Shown in pieces: positions 43,601 through 49,600 of a stretch of 64,000 nucleotides of DNA. This DNA comes from an uncultured candidate division Zixibacteria bacterium (lineage in GTDB: Bacteria; Zixibacteria; MSB-5A5; RBG-16-43-9): NCBI GenBank assembly GCA_963713865.1, contig OY970208.1, positions 736,001 to 800,000 on the forward strand, written 5' to 3'. The first letter of the stretch is position 1. The number at the start of each line of letters is the position of its first letter. Position numbers: made by a program.

Positions 43601-46600
43601 ATAATTATGATCATACCGGATATTGAAAAGTGAAGCTTCCAGTCTGTTTACAGTTTCATTTAAGGAAATCCAGAGAGTATCAATATCACCTCGATTGACT
43701 GAAAGATAATTAGGAGAAAGGAAGACTATTAATGATGGCTGTAGATTTAAGGTAAAATGAAAAGTGCTTGACCAGTCGGAAATCAATGTATCCAGAACAG
43801 ATGAAATCTGCCTGTGCCTCCCCCTCCAGAAGTAAATTGCACTGGAAAGACTTTCCGGAAAGCTGGCATTATAAGTAAATTGACTATCAGGTTCGCAACT
43901 TAGCCAGCCTGACTGGGTTAAATTTCCAATAAACAGGCTATCAGTTGAAGTCTGGATTTGGATTGAATACAAACTATCCCCTGGTATGGTGGTAGAGCTT
44001 GTCTGGAATACAAGCGGGATCTGAACTTCAGCACTGCCACCTACGGTTAATAAAATATAAATCAATAAAAATATTTTAATACATTTCATCTTCAGCCTCC
44101 CTTCATAAGGTTAGCTTTACTATAACTATTTTTAAGAGACCTGCTAATTTTTCGAAATCGTAGGATTCTCAACGGAGGAAAGATCCATAAACCATTGGCA
44201 CCGGGAAGTAAGATATAGTGTTGTTCTCAAGCCTGGTTTATTACTTATGCTTATAATGTTTTTACCCCTCCCTCACAGATCACATCACCGTTTGGACATA
44301 CAAATAATGTGCCTGAAATTAACTTGATAGTTAGTAAGCAGTTAGCTTCTAAAAGATATCAAAAAACTGCTCACTATTTGAACAGTTTTAAAGCTTTTCT
44401 GTTTGTTCCTGATGTAAGTTCATATTTTGAAATAGTTTAATGTATAATAAGACGTCTGAACCATAGCTTTACATCTTTTCCAAAATGACCTCTTCTTCTA
44501 AAAAGAGCTTGACAATATCAAAAAGGATGATTATTTAATCCAGTGGGAAGTTGAATTAGCAATTATTCATAGGAAAGGAGAAGTTATGAGAAAATCGATT
44601 TTGATTTTGCTTATTATCTTTTTCGGATTATTTACTCTGCCTCTCTTTGCTCAGGATCCAGGTATTGCTGATACAGTCAGATTGGCAACTATCTCTGGAG
44701 AAATCGGAACCCAGGTCTCTTTTCCGGTGTTCTTAGATAACGATGAAGAGTTGATCTCAGTAGTCATCCCGCTTTTGGTGAACGGATATTCTGGCTGGCT
44801 AAGATTCGATTCGGTCTCTTATGAGGGGAGTCGTCTATTAGACCCTCTAGTATTGGATCACCGAAAAACATATGTCTTCGATTCCGACACTTTCACCTTT
44901 GACAATTTGCTTTTATCTTTCTCTATCTCTTCTGGAAATAGTTTACCTGCTGGAGCAGGCAAGCTCTGCAATCTCTGGTTTACCTTGCATTTTGGCGGTG
45001 GGGTTTTAGTGGATTCCTTGCCTGATTCACCCCAGGGAAAACTACTGCTCACTGATTCAAACCAGCACTCTTTTACCCCACAATTCTTTTCCGGTCTGAT
45101 TGAGATTGCCTGTAACTATATGGTCGGGGATGTTGACCAGGATGGAAAAGTATCTATCTCTGATGTTATATCCATCGATAACATCTGGGAGTATGATTAT
45201 CATCTCAATTCTTATCCTGTTTACGACCGGTATGGTCGGGCAGACCTGAAGTGTGACCGCAGGTTAGATTTGCGCGATATCACCTATCTCTGCGGTTATC
45301 TTTTTCGGGGTTTTCCGCCACCATGTACCTGTGGAACTACCAATCCATCATATTATAATGATCCGGCACTTCCGGATACGGTCTGGGTTGAAAACAAAAC
45401 CCTGAGAGCAGGGATTCCTTCTTCGATTTGCATGGGTATAATCAATGATGAGCTTTTAAGCGGTTTGGAATTGAGATTCGAGATAGACGGGAACGCTGTG
45501 CTTGAGTGGGATGCGGATAGCGGGTTGGTACCAACTAACCGTTTAAAGGCTTTTACGCGTTGGGGTGGCGGTGAGCATGCTGATAGTATCAATCCGGAAA
45601 ACTTCAATCTATTCGCCTGGGGATATTTGGTTAATTTTACACCTGGAAGAGAGGCAGTTTGTTGTCCAGTTTTCACTCCCAAATCAGCTGGAACAGCAAC
45701 TTTCCATTTAATCCGCTGGGTGAACGGCAGTGAATCTATGCTGGTCACAGAGGATAATGCGGCCATCTTGCCTGCCTTATACGGTGGAACTATCACGGTA
45801 CTACCTGATCCAAATCACGATGGGATATTCAGCATTGCGGATGTGGTCTATTTGGTTGATTACCTGTTCAAGGGTGGGCCTGGACTCGATCCCTATGAAT
45901 CAGGAGATATGAATTGTGACGGTAAAGTATCTGTCAGCGATGTGGTCTATTTAATTAATTATCTTTTCAAAGGCGGACCACCGCCAGGGTGCTGAAATAT
46001 AGTTTGATGTTTGTTCGTTTGGCGTTTGTTAGTAGGGGTTAGTTTCAAACCAGCCCCTAACTACTTATTATTTAATGGATTAAAGGCTAAGCTATCCACC
46101 TCAGTTGAATCGCATATAGTTAATTCCCCAAATACGACTTTTTTAATCTTGTTTATAACTTGACAGAATTTAAAAACTCATTATATTAAAGTTGAAGCAG
46201 GTTGTTTAACGTTCTTTTAACACAAGTAGTTTAATAGTGCAATAGTGAGGGGATGTTCTCATCCCCGTTATTTTTACCCGGGATGATACCATTCCAAAGC
46301 GAGTAAACCTAATGGGAATAATAATGACAGTAAATAATAAATTCAATTATCTTCTGAAACAGGGTGAGAATATAACCAGATTAAAGATTATAATCCTGTC
46401 AGGATTTTTGATTTTTTCAATACCTGTATCAGTCTTTTCTCAGACGATAATCAAATCCTTCCCTGCTCCAGGTGCTGAGCCCAGGGGCTTAGCCTGGGAT
46501 GGGTCCTATCTCTGGTGTGCTGAATATTTCTCTGGGAAAATATACAAACTGGACCCTTCCAACGGTGCAAAAGTTGATTCCGTTTCCTTTCAGATAATGG

Positions 46601-49600
46601 GCGATTATGGAGGTATTACCTGGGGTAATAATGGTCAACTCTGGGTAGCTAATGGCAGTTATGTTTATGAAATAAATCCGGTTTCAGGTGATACCATCTC
46701 TTCTTTTCATTGCCCTGGGGGATGAGGTGCTACTTCCTGTGGACTGACCCGTGTGGCCAGCAACCTTTGGGGCTCAGATCGTAACTTGCTTCTTGTCAGG
46801 AAGATGACAACTTCAGGGGCACAGCTTTTCACCTTTAGTTTAGACATGGATAACCCGAAGGATTTAGCAAATGATAGTACAGACCTATGGTTGGTCACCT
46901 CTGATGGAAAGTTATTTAAATATAATCAAAATGGTGAGGTAGTGGATTCAATTATAGGTTTATTATCCAGCGGATGGGGATTAACCTGGGAGAACAAGCA
47001 TTTATGGGTGTCAGACCCTTCTTCTGACTCCATCTATGAGGTAAAATTGCCTCAATATAAGAATATTAGTGCTGACAGTGTTAAGAACTGGATAGAGAGT
47101 GGAGCTAATCTGGTAATACTGGACGTCAGGGAACTGTATGAGTTTGAAAGTTATGGCAGAATTCCAGATGCTATAAATCTTCCCTGGAATTCAGGTGTTC
47201 TGGACACAGCCTATACCCGGTTTTCTCTGAATGATACCATAATTGTGGTCTGCCATAGTGGCAACCGAAGTGCCCAGGCAAGCAATTTCCTGGATGGAAA
47301 AGGATTCCAAAATGTCTATAATATGTTAGGAGGAATGAACGTTTGGCATTACCCTGTAGAGGTTGGAGGACACATTTCTGAGAACGTTACCTGGGGAAAA
47401 GATAAAAGTCCTTTCATTGCAGTGGCAGATATTGTTCTCGATAGTGGCAAAACCCTTACCCTTGAGCCCGGAGTAAATTTAGAATTTGATGGATTCTTCT
47501 CTTTAGATGCTTATGGTAACCTTATAGCCCAGGGGACCCTCGATAGTAATATCAACTTTACATCCTATAATTTATTTTCGTCTAGATGGGAAGGAATCAG
47601 TATTTTTAAAGGCAGTAATAGCTATTTCACCTATTGCAGAATCGATAGTATAGAAAATGGAATCTTGTGTCTTAACTCCTCTCCTATCATTGAAAATTCA
47701 TGGATTATCGGTAATCAGAACTGTTTACATCTTTCTGGTACTTTTGCCAATCCCCCGATTTACAATTGCAAATTGCAAGCAGCAGTTAACAGCTCTGCTA
47801 TATTAATCCTGTGTGATTCTTCATCAGCTCCCACCATCACTTACTGCAGTATTATGGATGGGTTAAAAGGTATGGTCTCTAAAAATGGCTCTAATCCAAA
47901 GTTGAATTACGATAATATATATAACAATAATGATTATGGTGTATTAAATGAAGATTCCTCAGTGATTGTAGATGCAAAATATAACTGGTGGGGGCACAAA
48001 AGTGGTCCCTTTGATCCTGTAGATAATCCTGATGGGCAGGGTAACCGGGTGAGCCAGCGGGTTGATTATATCCCCTGGCTCCAGATCATTTTCCTCTATG
48101 TTTGCGGAGATGCGAATTCTGATTCTTCAACTACGGTTTCGGATGTGGTTTATCTCATAAACTATCTGTTCAAGGGTGGTCCTGCTCCTGATCCGATTCA
48201 AAAGGTAGATGTAAACAGTGATGGCAAAGTAACCGTCAGCGATGTGGTCTATCTGATCAATTATCTTTTCAAAAGTGGACCAGCACCCTGTGGTTGATTT
48301 AAAAATTAATCTTTTTAACTAAATAGCAAGATTTTATTCTATTTCAAAACCTATCGTAACCTTTAACCGATTTCCATCCAGAGTTATCAGTTATCATGAA
48401 TCATTAAAGGGATTATACTTAGTCCCTTAATAGAGCAGGATAAGTGAACGAAAAAAGTCCAGGTCATTCAGTTGAAAAACCTCTATCCCTAAATGAGGAA
48501 TTACTTCTTATTATTAAAGCTGGATGGTTAAGAGGAATCCTTTGGTTCTTCCGTTTGTGGATTTAAAGGTGGTTCATATTCCTCTAAGGTTAGAAAACCA
48601 TATTTTAACATCCGGTTCAGGATTATCTTTCTTCTTCTCTCAAATCTTTTACTGTCTGAGGTGGGAGGGTATTTTCGGGGAAAGGGGAGGGAAGTTGCCA
48701 TCCGGATAGCCTCATTTGGCGTAAGGTCTGAAGAGGATTTTCCAAAATAGGATCGGGAAGCCGCCTCACAGCCATAGATTCCATCTCCCCATTCAATTAA
48801 ATTTAAATATAGTTCAAAAATTCTTCTTTTGCTTAATGCTTTTTCCAGGCGGAAAGCGATTAAGATCTCTTTCAGTTTTCTCAAAGGGTTTTTAGAAGGT
48901 GAAAGGTAAAGATTTTTAGCTAATTGCTGAGTGATCGTAGAAGCTCCTCGTGAAAATTTCTTCTTCTTCCAGTCGATCTTCAAAGACTCTTTCATCTCCT
49001 CCAGGTCTATGCCGCTGTGGGTAAAAAAATTTATGTCTTCTCCTACTAAGATTGCTTTCTTTAAATAAGGCGAGATCTGGCTATAAGGCACCCAGAGGTG
49101 ATGTTCTCTGGTTTTTTTCCCTTTTTTAATATATTCTTTGTTCCTTATCTGGATTAAAGAGGTAGTTTTGGGATTTTCCCTTTGTAGATATTTTACATCT
49201 GGCAGTGTCAGGTATTCGATAAGAAGGATAAGAACGAAAACCAGAATTAACCCCGAGATCACGTAACGCCATTTGAATTTTTTCGGTTTTAGAAAGCTCA
49301 TAACTTCTATTTGGAGTGTGAAGCTTTAGCTTTACCCTTGGTCAATCTAAAGATTGACACTCCAGAGAAAAAAACGACTTGATAAATCAAGCAACTACAA
49401 ATCTAAGGCTTTATTTTAAACTATTAAGTAGAAAACTGCAACAGGATTTTATTATCTAATTTTATGTTTTATAGGCAGGTTGTATAGGTAGTAGTTGTAG
49501 GCGCGGGTTTGGAACCCGCACCTACAAAAAAATTATTTTTTGGCATTTGGTCCTCCATAAGTTCCAATATCGCTTACGCTTCCATCCGGATCGGTTAAAA

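Follow-up and report, generated by a model that had tools for sequence, protein, structure and literature searches.

The locus considered here raises a simple question: does a TGA codon lying within a long reading frame end one gene, or is it decoded as selenocysteine (Sec) within a larger one? It is found in the window, i.e., the whole stretch of 64,000 nucleotides that was analysed, from a Zixibacteria bacterium. To our knowledge, this candidate phylum has no cultured members.

One reading frame across an internal TGA

Under translation table 11, the frame is split into two ORFs of 137 and 514 aa. When TGA is translated as U, positions 46312-48297 (+) give 661 residues, with U138 encoded by 46723-46725 and a terminal stop that is also a TGA (48295-48297). 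As the gene itself ends with TGA, this codon is not reassigned genome-wide. An earlier note on this DNA had proposed a single secreted 661-aa protein combining a propeller, a rhodanese, a beta-helix and a dockerin with Sec at the TGA, and the single frame with its lone internal TGA agrees with it. The features of the gene are the following.

46312..48297 (+): whole gene of 661 codons, closed by a TGA stop and containing a single internal TGA (translation with TGA as U)
46312..46440 (+): putative signal peptide, residues 1-43, with a hydrophobic core and then ...VFSQ/T (from the sequence and the alignment of orthologs)
46441..47049 (+): five-bladed beta-propeller, residues 44-246 (AlphaFold2 and Foldseek)
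46516..46518 (+): codon of Cys69 (blade 1, L-W-C-A), invariant in 23/23 sequences
46711..46713 (+): codon of Cys134 (C-P-G-G-U), invariant in 23/23 sequences
46723..46725 (+): TGA putatively read as selenocysteine (U138), in the same column in 29/29 subfamily loci covering it
47068..47349 (+): rhodanese, residues 253-346 (Pfam PF00581, 63.2 bits, cut-off 22.2)
47251-47253 (+): codon of the rhodanese active-site Cys314 (C-H-S-G-N-R-S), invariant in 7/7 orthologs
47542..47772 (+): residues 411-487, the stretch of the right-handed beta-helix best matched by Pfam (Beta_helix)
48106..48267 (+): type I dockerin, residues 599-652 (Pfam Dockerin_1, PF00404, E 1.5e-10, 41.5 bits, cut-off 22.9)

The true start could be the ATG at 46312 or the one at 46324, and either may hold.

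Search of the genomes of 60 relatives led to six orthologs, all with a single TGA in the same column. The same is true for the seven carriers, window gene included, found among 285 genomes of the phylum, which extends to 7/7 genome carriers the colinearity across exactly one TGA reported before. Likewise, the retention of the TGA by metagenome orthologs now holds for 22/22 loci, these being the subfamily members that cover the Sec column among 55 metagenome loci. The 29 subfamily loci bearing the TGA (7 genome carriers and 22 metagenome loci) have 39-91% protein identity. In the window, the genome orthologs and the metagenome loci, the codon is preceded by C-P-G-[G/W], whose Cys-Pro-Gly is invariant. 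An extra TAA is present in the same-genus ortholog, and three copies are damaged (L075, L086 and L088).

The TGA falls inside the loop connecting blades 2 and 3 of the propeller. An AlphaFold2 model based on 23 sequences (pLDDT 95.1, pTM 0.91) gives one domain across the UGA, in line with a propeller that continues beyond it. Against Pfam, the N-terminal part only shows sub-threshold matches to Vgb_lyase and DUF6923 (PF21959; 21.2 bits, under the gathering score of 27). Like Cys69 and Cys134, Sec138 is invariant (23/23 sequences). The motif C-x3-U-x4-C previously described is therefore retained for its C-x3-U part and abandoned for x4-C, the Cys four residues past Sec being found in only 8/23 sequences, whereas the distant Cys69 has to be added.

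The TGA could instead be a true stop, separating a 137-aa secreted fragment from a rhodanese protein of 497-514 aa initiated at GTG 46753 or at the ATG of an R-K-M motif (residue 165). Table 11 gives exactly these ORFs, and public annotation agrees with them: as stated in the earlier note, the gene models of the closest public proteins (27/27; 400-528 aa, named “rhodanese-related sulfurtransferase”) begin past the TGA, none extending back across it, while a 118-aa public model ends with ...CPGG. Furthermore, the R-K-M ATG is kept in 19/25 sequences and preceded by AGG AAG. However, AGGA lies a mere 2 nt from this ATG, both fragments would be half-propellers although one five-bladed fold spans the TGA (pLDDT 95), and the downstream product would carry a dockerin or a T9SS sorting domain but no signal peptide. 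In addition, 29 loci, down to 39% identity, retain both the frame and the column of the TGA, and a conserved hairpin and frozen synonymous sites come after the TGA (see below). Termination at this codon is extremely improbable.

Probable Sec decoding and the region downstream of the UGA

The presence of the Sec machinery, already mentioned in the earlier note, is borne out by the identification of tRNA-Sec (62.3 bits), selA (543 bits), selB (399 bits) and a Sec-containing selD, which has an in-frame TGA and a strong GUU-loop hairpin; all four form one genomic cluster. SelB was detected in six of the seven carrier genomes, the missing one being an 82%-complete genome. Two features are found downstream of the UGA.

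46741..46761 (+): codons +6 to +12 past the UGA, with frozen synonymous sites (codon-choice entropy and third-position identity)
46744..46760 (+): putative SECIS hairpin CUGACC-CGUGU-GGCCAG, with its loop at 46750-46754, 24 nt past the UGA

Past the UGA, no codons other than +6 to +12 have frozen synonymous sites. When codon-choice entropy is ranked over the 55 columns whose majority residue is 4- or 6-fold degenerate, the five lowest values are those of codons +6, +7, +8, +9 and +12. Third-position identity reaches 0.65-1.0 at codons +6 to +12 versus 0.45 overall, and the top four of 184 8-codon windows for this identity start at +4 to +7.

The hairpin is found in 25/25 distinct sequences, with a loop of 3-5 nt, a UGA-to-loop spacing of 17 or 24 nt, and a G as the first or second nucleotide of the loop, with U or G coming next. 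The bSECIS model given in PMC13188914 comprises a loop of 3-9 nt, an upper stem of at least 4 bp, a G at loop position 1 or 2, a distance from the UGA of 16-37 nt and an MFE <= -7.5 kcal/mol; the geometry set out in points i-iii of its Fig. 2 legend is that of all 25 distinct sequences. Stability varies between clades. In that of the window, the stem includes an A.C mismatch and the hairpin is weak, with -2.1 to -3.2 kcal/mol and, as a consensus structure, -4.0 kcal/mol, i.e., less stable than the -7.5 kcal/mol of the model, and values range from -5 to -11.5 kcal/mol in other clades. By chance, such a hairpin occurs in 28% of sequence-by-position cells; across the domain, codon positions 90-96 are the only ones where 95% or more of 22 sequences have it, Sec being codon 94. 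Pair 25:35 is A.C in 13 sequences, A-U in eight, G-C in two and G-U in one. Hairpin cells are paired in 81% of cases versus 24-48% with slid partners, the structure having been derived from the same sequences. Covariation is thin, both sides changing in only 4/17 pairs. In L076 and L077, the same loop (CGUGA) is formed in a different register, and two pairs have changed in a compensatory way from one to the other.

This hairpin differs from the fold of -13.9 kcal/mol initially proposed as the SECIS. The latter could be reproduced, but folding was equally good or better for 196 of 200 shuffles, and the regional MFE of -13.4 to -13.9 kcal/mol belongs to a different, unconserved structure; it was therefore rejected in favour of the conserved hairpin at 46744-46760. 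The folding energy of the region is not better than that of shuffles in any of six orthologs (z -1.31 to +1.97), and a search of Rfam matched no family.

Together, the frozen codons and the shared hairpin appear to be the footprint of a bacterial SECIS. SelB and tRNA-Sec would decode the UGA at 46723-46725, guided by this small hairpin located within the coding sequence, 19-37 nt downstream. Readthrough could also occur without Sec, through a near-cognate tRNA inserting Trp, Cys or Arg or through a local recoding independent of SelB. The weak hairpin of the window's clade and the lack of Cys homologs marking a Sec/Cys site are compatible with this. Nevertheless, the sel cluster is complete with a Sec-type selD, the loop features and spacing of the hairpin match those of bacterial SECIS elements, and the invariant Cys134 creates the C-x3-U expected for a selenenylsulfide. 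It would also be odd for a leaky stop to be kept for so long with a sense codon one mutation away. Such readthrough is very improbable, and ordinary Sec decoding in a new selenoprotein family is very probably at work.

Relations with known selenoproteins and propellers

No Cys counterpart was found: 0/25 distant relatives have a Cys at the column of Cys134 or Sec, 0/27 close public proteins are a full-length Cys form and 0/7 carrier genomes of the phylum encode a Cys-for-Sec form, in line with the absence of a Cys homolog at the Sec column noted earlier. Cys forms are known for nearly all selenoprotein families, according to PMC13188914, and their absence here counts against a selenoprotein. 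NCBIfam gives no match over cut-off to a selenoprotein family, so the Sec domain remains outside the curated ones, as had been claimed. The Sec-propeller family does not figure among the known selenoprotein families of the list consulted (Table 1 of PMC13188914). The gene very probably encodes a true selenoprotein, and one whose family is still unlisted.

Selenoprotein discovery still mostly relies on Cys/Sec pairs or thioredoxin-like motifs. The Sec-propeller family has neither a Cys/Sec pair, in anything searched, nor a thioredoxin-like motif, and its fold is a beta-propeller. Since there is no Cys form and Sec lies outside the sole annotated domain, all the public models examined are truncated and named “rhodanese”; gene callers should merge both ORFs in the carrier genomes. 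The prokaryotic selenoproteome would gain a family from a candidate phylum.

In the known rhodanese selenoproteins, the Sec motifs sit in or beside the active-site loop of the rhodanese. Forms 1-5 of these proteins (PF00581, NF041203, NF045694) resemble the window protein as selenoproteins with a rhodanese domain, and their Sec motifs are UxxS, UxxG, CxU and UxxxxU (Table 1 of PMC13188914). By contrast, the rhodanese of the window protein retains its Cys, and Sec is located 176 residues upstream, in another domain. The window protein was rejected as a known rhodanese selenoprotein: its match to NF041203, located on the rhodanese domain, is under the cut-off (32.4 versus 115 bits) and Sec138 is outside residues 253-346.

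The best structural neighbours of the propeller according to Foldseek (TM-scores of 0.79-0.81) are type I (plant/bacterial) glutaminyl cyclases (3mbr, 3nol, 2iwa and 2faw), which share a five-bladed propeller of ~200-250 residues. We know of no selenocysteine reported in these enzymes. The same blade architecture and the repeat “P-R-G-L-A-W-D-G...L-W” are found in proteins with weak DUF6923, Vgb_lyase or NHL-like matches (11,595 library proteins at E <= 0.001). However, these lack the three-residue insertion (C-P-G-G-U-G-A), with no Cys or Sec there in 25/25 proteins examined. They are widespread in uncultured bacteria, and many are located at the surface, with a T9SS or dockerin tail.

Given these likenesses, the propeller could be an enzyme of the glutaminyl-cyclase type or simply a module for binding, with Sec having only a structural role, as a selenenylsulfide staple; the absence of Cys and Sec from that loop in the wider repeat family would fit. 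However, identity with the cyclases is only 15-18%, the likeness being one of fold alone, and the window protein has no match to Glu_cyclase_2 (PF05096) at E <= 0.1. Furthermore, as Sec is costly to decode, strictly kept and devoid of a Cys form, a chemical role would be favoured over a structural one. This reading, with its purely structural Sec, is improbable.

Other listed envelope or extracellular selenoproteins also use Sec outside the cytoplasm (ExtKL, MccSep, UshA-like, DUF1573 and the FCYXU-type TonB receptor). ExtKL is a multiheme cytochrome and MccSep a polysulfide-reducing multiheme selenoenzyme, whose Sec acts on polysulfide (PMC13510729). The window protein has no heme motif and shares no domain with these selenoproteins; it has a propeller and a dockerin or T9SS tail.

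Possible role of Sec138 at the cell surface

In sulfurtransferase rhodaneses, the active-site Cys belongs to a six-residue C-x4-R loop. The rhodanese of the window protein fits this type, with a Pfam match over cut-off and Cys314 in the loop. The propeller is also found without a rhodanese and is thus an autonomous module. Sec138 would lie in a blade 2-to-3 loop that is three residues longer, four residues after the invariant Cys134. Its selenolate could provide the nucleophile for redox chemistry or sulfur transfer, and a selenenylsulfide could form between Sec138 and Cys134. Most members may combine this site with the Cys-type rhodanese, whose Cys314 would carry sulfane sulfur. Such a sulfur/redox mechanism at Sec138, proposed from domain logic only, is possible and should be considered as tentative; the propellers devoid of a rhodanese speak against it.

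Propeller faces often hold metals, and Cys69, Cys134 and Sec138, three invariant chalcogen residues, could bind a metal or metalloid (e.g., Cu, Hg, As or Se itself) with a real Sec but no sulfur/redox catalysis. About 70% of the predicted Sec-ligand interactions involve metals or metal-derived molecules, as given in PMC13188914. However, there are no conserved metal-handling neighbours and the Cys-type rhodanese often fused to the propeller is rather a sign of sulfane-sulfur chemistry, so that a metal site is unlikely.

The product is very probably secreted and tethered to the cell surface, with its putative Sec in the five-bladed propeller domain. The dockerin would hold it there, whereas relatives would use a T9SS sorting domain for this. 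Two neighbouring genes are relevant.

41711..44089 (-): gene encoding a cohesin domain and a T9SS C-terminal sorting domain (Pfam)
44586..45995 (+): gene encoding a dockerin-bearing protein (Pfam)

Both had been described as cohesin genes. This holds for the first (Pfam Cohesin), whose product is a candidate surface scaffold and at most a possible partner of the dockerin, but not for 44586-45995, which has only a dockerin and no Pfam cohesin at E <= 0.05. Comparison of the gene neighbourhoods of the family indicates that they are not conserved and names no pathway.

A bolder proposal is that of a catalytic propeller with obligate Sec and no Cys counterpart, borne by anaerobic Zixibacteria in a dockerin/cohesin (cellulosome-like) or T9SS layer at their surface. 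From its exposed position, the selenolate would attack disulfides or sulfur compounds outside the cell (elemental sulfur, polysulfide or thiosulfate) and pass sulfane sulfur to the fused rhodanese. This is rather doubtful. If true, it would define a new class of surface selenoenzymes, as well as the first case of a selenoprotein within an assembly built on dockerins. Whatever its mechanism, the Sec-propeller family would place selenium chemistry on the outer cell surface, in the dockerin-borne exoproteome, and the strict retention of Sec makes it a good case for what selenium does beyond sulfur. As for the other domains, the beta-helix is swapped for another domain in the G030/G014 clade.

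Reading frame, in-frame TGA and decoding machinery

The gene at 46312-48297 (+) forms, as the earlier note stated, a single frame of 661 codons, which on translation is interrupted only by the TGA at 46723-46725 (residue 138) and ends at a TGA at 48295-48297. Table 11 splits the same stretch in two, an ORF of 137 aa and another of 514 aa, and the opposite strand is closed to translation. Contigs of three sequencing runs (X1, X3 and X4) span the place of the TGA, with no indels among the differences listed. A genome-wide reassignment of TGA was considered and is excluded, since this codon also serves as an ordinary stop, including that of the gene itself. 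The Pfam domains of the protein are the following:

residues 253-346 (+), rhodanese domain, 63.2 bits
within the protein encoded by 46312-48297 (+), right-handed beta-helix
residues 599-652 (+), type I dockerin

Residues 1-250 give matches to DUF6923 and Vgb_lyase, both below the Pfam threshold. As noted earlier, no NCBIfam selenoprotein family scores above its cut-off on the window protein; NF041203, a model of rhodanese (seleno)proteins, scores 32.4 bits where its cut-off is 115, and it aligns to the rhodanese domain, away from the TGA.

The presence of a selenocysteine (Sec) machinery in the source genome is confirmed, tRNA-Sec, selD, selA and selB lying side by side (G000:C1:1640358-1645027; loci L001, L009 and L111). 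The tRNA-Sec scores 62.3 bits, above the Rfam cut-off. It adjoins selD, which has an in-frame TGA at the usual G-U-x-x-K place (G-U-A-A-K) and is followed in the cluster by selA (543 bits) and then selB (399 bits). The selD TGA precedes a strong hairpin (8 bp stem, GUU loop), much stronger than that of the window gene. The FdhA-like and MvhD/FlpD genes of this genome have no in-frame TGA, and selD is therefore its only SECIS comparison. Of the 61 genomes in the relatives' sample, 54 have a SelB match, as do six of the seven carriers of the subfamily; the carrier without one is an 82% complete genome (G023).

Conservation of the TGA column and predicted propeller fold

Colinearity of the orthologs across the TGA, claimed earlier, is upheld: six orthologs in 60 relatives' genomes (51-87% identity) each have a TGA in the same column, directly preceded by Cys-Pro-Gly-Gly in all six. 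With a profile of the N-terminal domain, the subfamily was found in 7 of 285 genomes of the phylum, belonging to one order and to 5 of 130 genera, and all seven copies have one TGA. A scan of metagenome contigs gave 55 loci, of which 22 (L056-L077, 39-90% identity) have C-P-G-[G/W]-TGA at the Sec138 column. The other 33 comprise 25 distant relatives from the repeat family, five loci too short to reach the column and three garbled ones (L086, L088 and L095). After removal of identical sequences, 25 distinct subfamily sequences remained for the codon and hairpin analyses. A Cys codon replaces the TGA in none of the subfamily sequences. The earlier note had counted the want of a Cys homolog at the Sec column against its own reading, and this want is borne out: where the subfamily has Cys134 and Sec138, none of 25 distant relatives has either Cys or Sec, and their corresponding loop is three residues shorter than the Sec loop.

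Some copies have other lesions. The same-genus ortholog, that of G001 (L018, on contig C9), carries a TAA in place of the Leu codon TTA at 47503-47505. Past this point its frame is intact and conserved; the change is a nonsense mutation of recent origin or else an error in the consensus of that assembly. L075 is a damaged Sec-propeller copy with an additional in-frame TAA in blade 5. The garbled loci L086 and L088 are also damaged copies, with TAG at two Trp codons and a frameshift close to the Sec site.

Public gene models begin after the TGA, as had been said, at least for the 27 closest proteins in a collection of 5.8 billion: none spans more than 70% of residues 45-360, and all lie wholly after the TGA. 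They are 400-528 aa long (497-514 aa in the earlier note). The named ones are labelled "rhodanese-like domain-containing protein" or "rhodanese-related sulfurtransferase", and one bears candidate division Zixibacteria as source in its name. One further public model, of 118 aa, terminates exactly at ...CPGG. Such models are what a true stop at the TGA would give; set beside the orthologs that continue colinearly through the same TGA, this explanation is extremely improbable.

The propeller homology was also rightly said to continue across the UGA. AlphaFold2, run on 23 sequences, predicts residues 44-246 as one five-bladed propeller (pLDDT 95.1, pTM 0.91), and predicted secondary structure places Sec138 in the loop that joins blade 2, at its outer strand, to the inner strand of blade 3. 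Outside the propeller, the full-length model (seven sequences) is of low quality (mean pLDDT 56.7) and therefore gives no reading of the position of Sec138 relative to Cys314. By sequence, the propeller belongs to a family of P-R-G-L-A-W-D-G...L-W repeats (11,595 library proteins at E <= 0.001), and a PDB sequence search returned only generic propeller repeats, a match to tetrathionate hydrolase (E 0.02) not being significant. The top TM-scores are those of plant and bacterial glutaminyl cyclases (2faw, 0.81; 2iwa, 0.80; 3mbr and 3nol, 0.79), at a sequence identity of only 15-18%, with NHL domains and virginiamycin B lyase ranking behind.

Besides the Gly, Trp, Leu and Asp of the repeat, Cys69, Cys134, Pro135, Gly136 and Sec138 are invariant in all 23 sequences. 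Of the C-x3-U-x4-C loop proposed earlier, C-x3-U thus holds throughout, while only 8 of 23 sequences have the Cys four residues past Sec. All seven genome orthologs keep the rhodanese Cys314 (C-H-S-G-N-R-S).

Silent-site conservation and the putative SECIS hairpin

The SECIS fold first proposed was reproduced at -13.9 kcal/mol, but shuffled sequences equal or better it in 196 of 200 cases. The 54-nt folds of six orthologs have z values from -1.31 to +1.97, and this fold was dropped in favour of a small conserved hairpin. RNAalifold on seven sequences gives only one compensatory pair. As in the earlier note, no Rfam SECIS family matches: over 46500-47000, at E <= 10, there are only chance eukaryotic matches.

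The informative recoding signal is silent-site conservation, not folding energy. Codon-choice entropy was computed for 55 columns in which at least 18 of the 25 sequences share a majority residue that is encoded by four or six codons. The five lowest values are those of codons +6, +7, +8, +9 and +12 after the UGA, which read GGA CUG ACC CGU ... AGC (entropies 0-0.91, median 1.69). In the same way, the third-position pairwise identity of codons +6 to +11 is 0.77, 0.92, 1.00, 0.65, 0.84 and 0.84, against 0.45 overall, and the best four of 184 eight-codon windows begin at +4 to +7. This frozen stretch forms the following element:

46744-46760 (+), putative SECIS hairpin, CUGACC-CGUGN-GGYCAG

At its central pair the 13 sequences of the window's clade have A.C; eight others have A-U, two G-C and one G-U. 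Overall, 81% of the hairpin cells are paired, a share that drops to 24-48% on sliding the partners, and the covariation score is attained by only 4 of 500 shuffles, with the caveat that the structure was itself derived from the sequences tested. L063 and L073 build the hairpin of different letters, with loops GGUC and GUC. The most distant members, L076 and L077, have a perfect stem of 5-6 bp; the CGUGA loop is retained but placed 7 nt closer to the UGA, and their hairpins (L076:921-980, L077:1731-1790) are differently coded and differ compensatorily at two pairs. It seems that the sequence of the loop is kept and its place is not.

The bSECIS model, as described in the Fig. 2 legend of PMC13188914, has a loop of 3-9 nt with G within the first two positions and then G or U, a stem of 4 bp or more, a distance of 16-37 nt from the UGA, and a stability of -7.5 kcal/mol or lower. 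All 25 distinct sequences have the geometry of that legend. This geometry is loose, 28% of arbitrary sequence-by-position cells passing at -2 kcal/mol; a pass rate of 95% or more among 22 sequences occurs only at codon positions 90-96 (Sec being 94). The hairpin of the window gene (-2.1 to -3.2 kcal/mol) falls below the stability criterion, whereas those of other clades (-5 to -11.5 kcal/mol) approach or reach it. The weak hairpin of the window's clade would suit a UGA read through without Sec; beside the full sel cluster and the SECIS-like loop and spacing of the hairpin, this is very improbable.

Points counting against the selenoprotein reading are the lack of a Cys homolog, the weak hairpin in the window's clade, the thin covariation and the TTA-to-TAA change in the G001 ortholog. 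With these included, the gene is judged with high confidence to be a genuine selenoprotein of a family not yet listed.

Novelty, possible chemistry and genomic setting

Table 1 of a 2026 review (PMC13188914) has 119 families or subfamilies, among which a propeller family and a comparable C-x3-U motif are both absent. In all five of its rhodanese forms Sec belongs to the rhodanese or DsbD part, whereas here Sec is in the propeller. The passages of the deep-Sep paper (PMC12013277) that were covered describe nine other new families and none like this one. In the full texts searched, nothing relevant links Zixibacteria with selenocysteine or selenoprotein (passages of PMC8318568, which has Zixibacteria and selenocysteine, hold nothing on such a protein), and nothing joins selenocysteine, beta-propeller and rhodanese, or Zixibacteria and dockerin; selenoprotein and dockerin meet only in unrelated work. 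The protein is classified as a new selenoprotein family on the ordinary bacterial decoding route, unusual in its propeller fold, its dockerin/T9SS surface display and its apparent absence of a Cys counterpart.

SelB would insert Sec at the UGA (46723-46725), and the selenolate of Sec138 (the review puts the pKa of a selenolate at about 5; PMC13188914) could be the nucleophile of a site on one propeller face. Cys134 could resolve it as a selenenylsulfide and, in the rhodanese-bearing majority, the site may exchange sulfane sulfur with a Cys314 persulfide. A polysulfide-reducing selenoenzyme that was recently described (PMC13510729) provides a precedent for Sec acting on sulfur in the cell envelope. 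Selenolate sulfur or redox chemistry is nonetheless proposed only tentatively. Metal binding by the site, with which the invariant Cys69, Cys134 and Sec138 would be compatible, is unlikely. A structural staple or a cyclase-like role, the latter suggested by the glutaminyl cyclase folds despite their low identity, is more doubtful still.

The architectures of the subfamily are as follows:

window type, propeller-rhodanese-beta-helix-dockerin
G030/G014 clade (two relatives' genomes), other domain in place of the beta-helix
P0178 (public protein), T9SS tail at the end
L067 (metagenome), propeller and T9SS sorting domain only
L072 (metagenome), propeller, Ig-like domain and dockerin
L075 (metagenome), propeller, He_PIG and T9SS tail

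Because these architectures vary, the Sec-propeller is an autonomous module, in a protein that, judging from its sequences, is always secreted and surface-anchored. The source genome gives 79 matches to the query protein, nearly all to its dockerin module, which implies that this Zixibacteria genome encodes proteins with a dockerin by the dozen and an extensive cohesin/dockerin system for the cell surface. Of the two neighbours taken earlier for cohesin genes, 41711-44089 (-) does encode a cohesin with a T9SS tail, while 44586-45995 has a dockerin only. The gene neighbourhood is not conserved among the genomes compared. For example, the ortholog of G013 lies among housekeeping genes (polyprenyl synthetase and FeoB), and that of G030 (L117, G030:C1:4000-17221) within a row of dockerin-bearing exoenzymes (S8 subtilase with T9SS tail, C25 gingipain-like peptidase, SBBP propeller protein and purple acid phosphatase).

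Other genes of the window are a fused MsrA-MsrB methionine sulfoxide reductase (35939-37009, +; PMSR and SelR domains) without in-frame TGA and, just downstream of the selenoprotein gene, a second beta-helix/NosD-like protein (49735-50793, -) and a DUF1028 protein (50894-51886, -), both preceded by a transglycosylase on the opposite strand.
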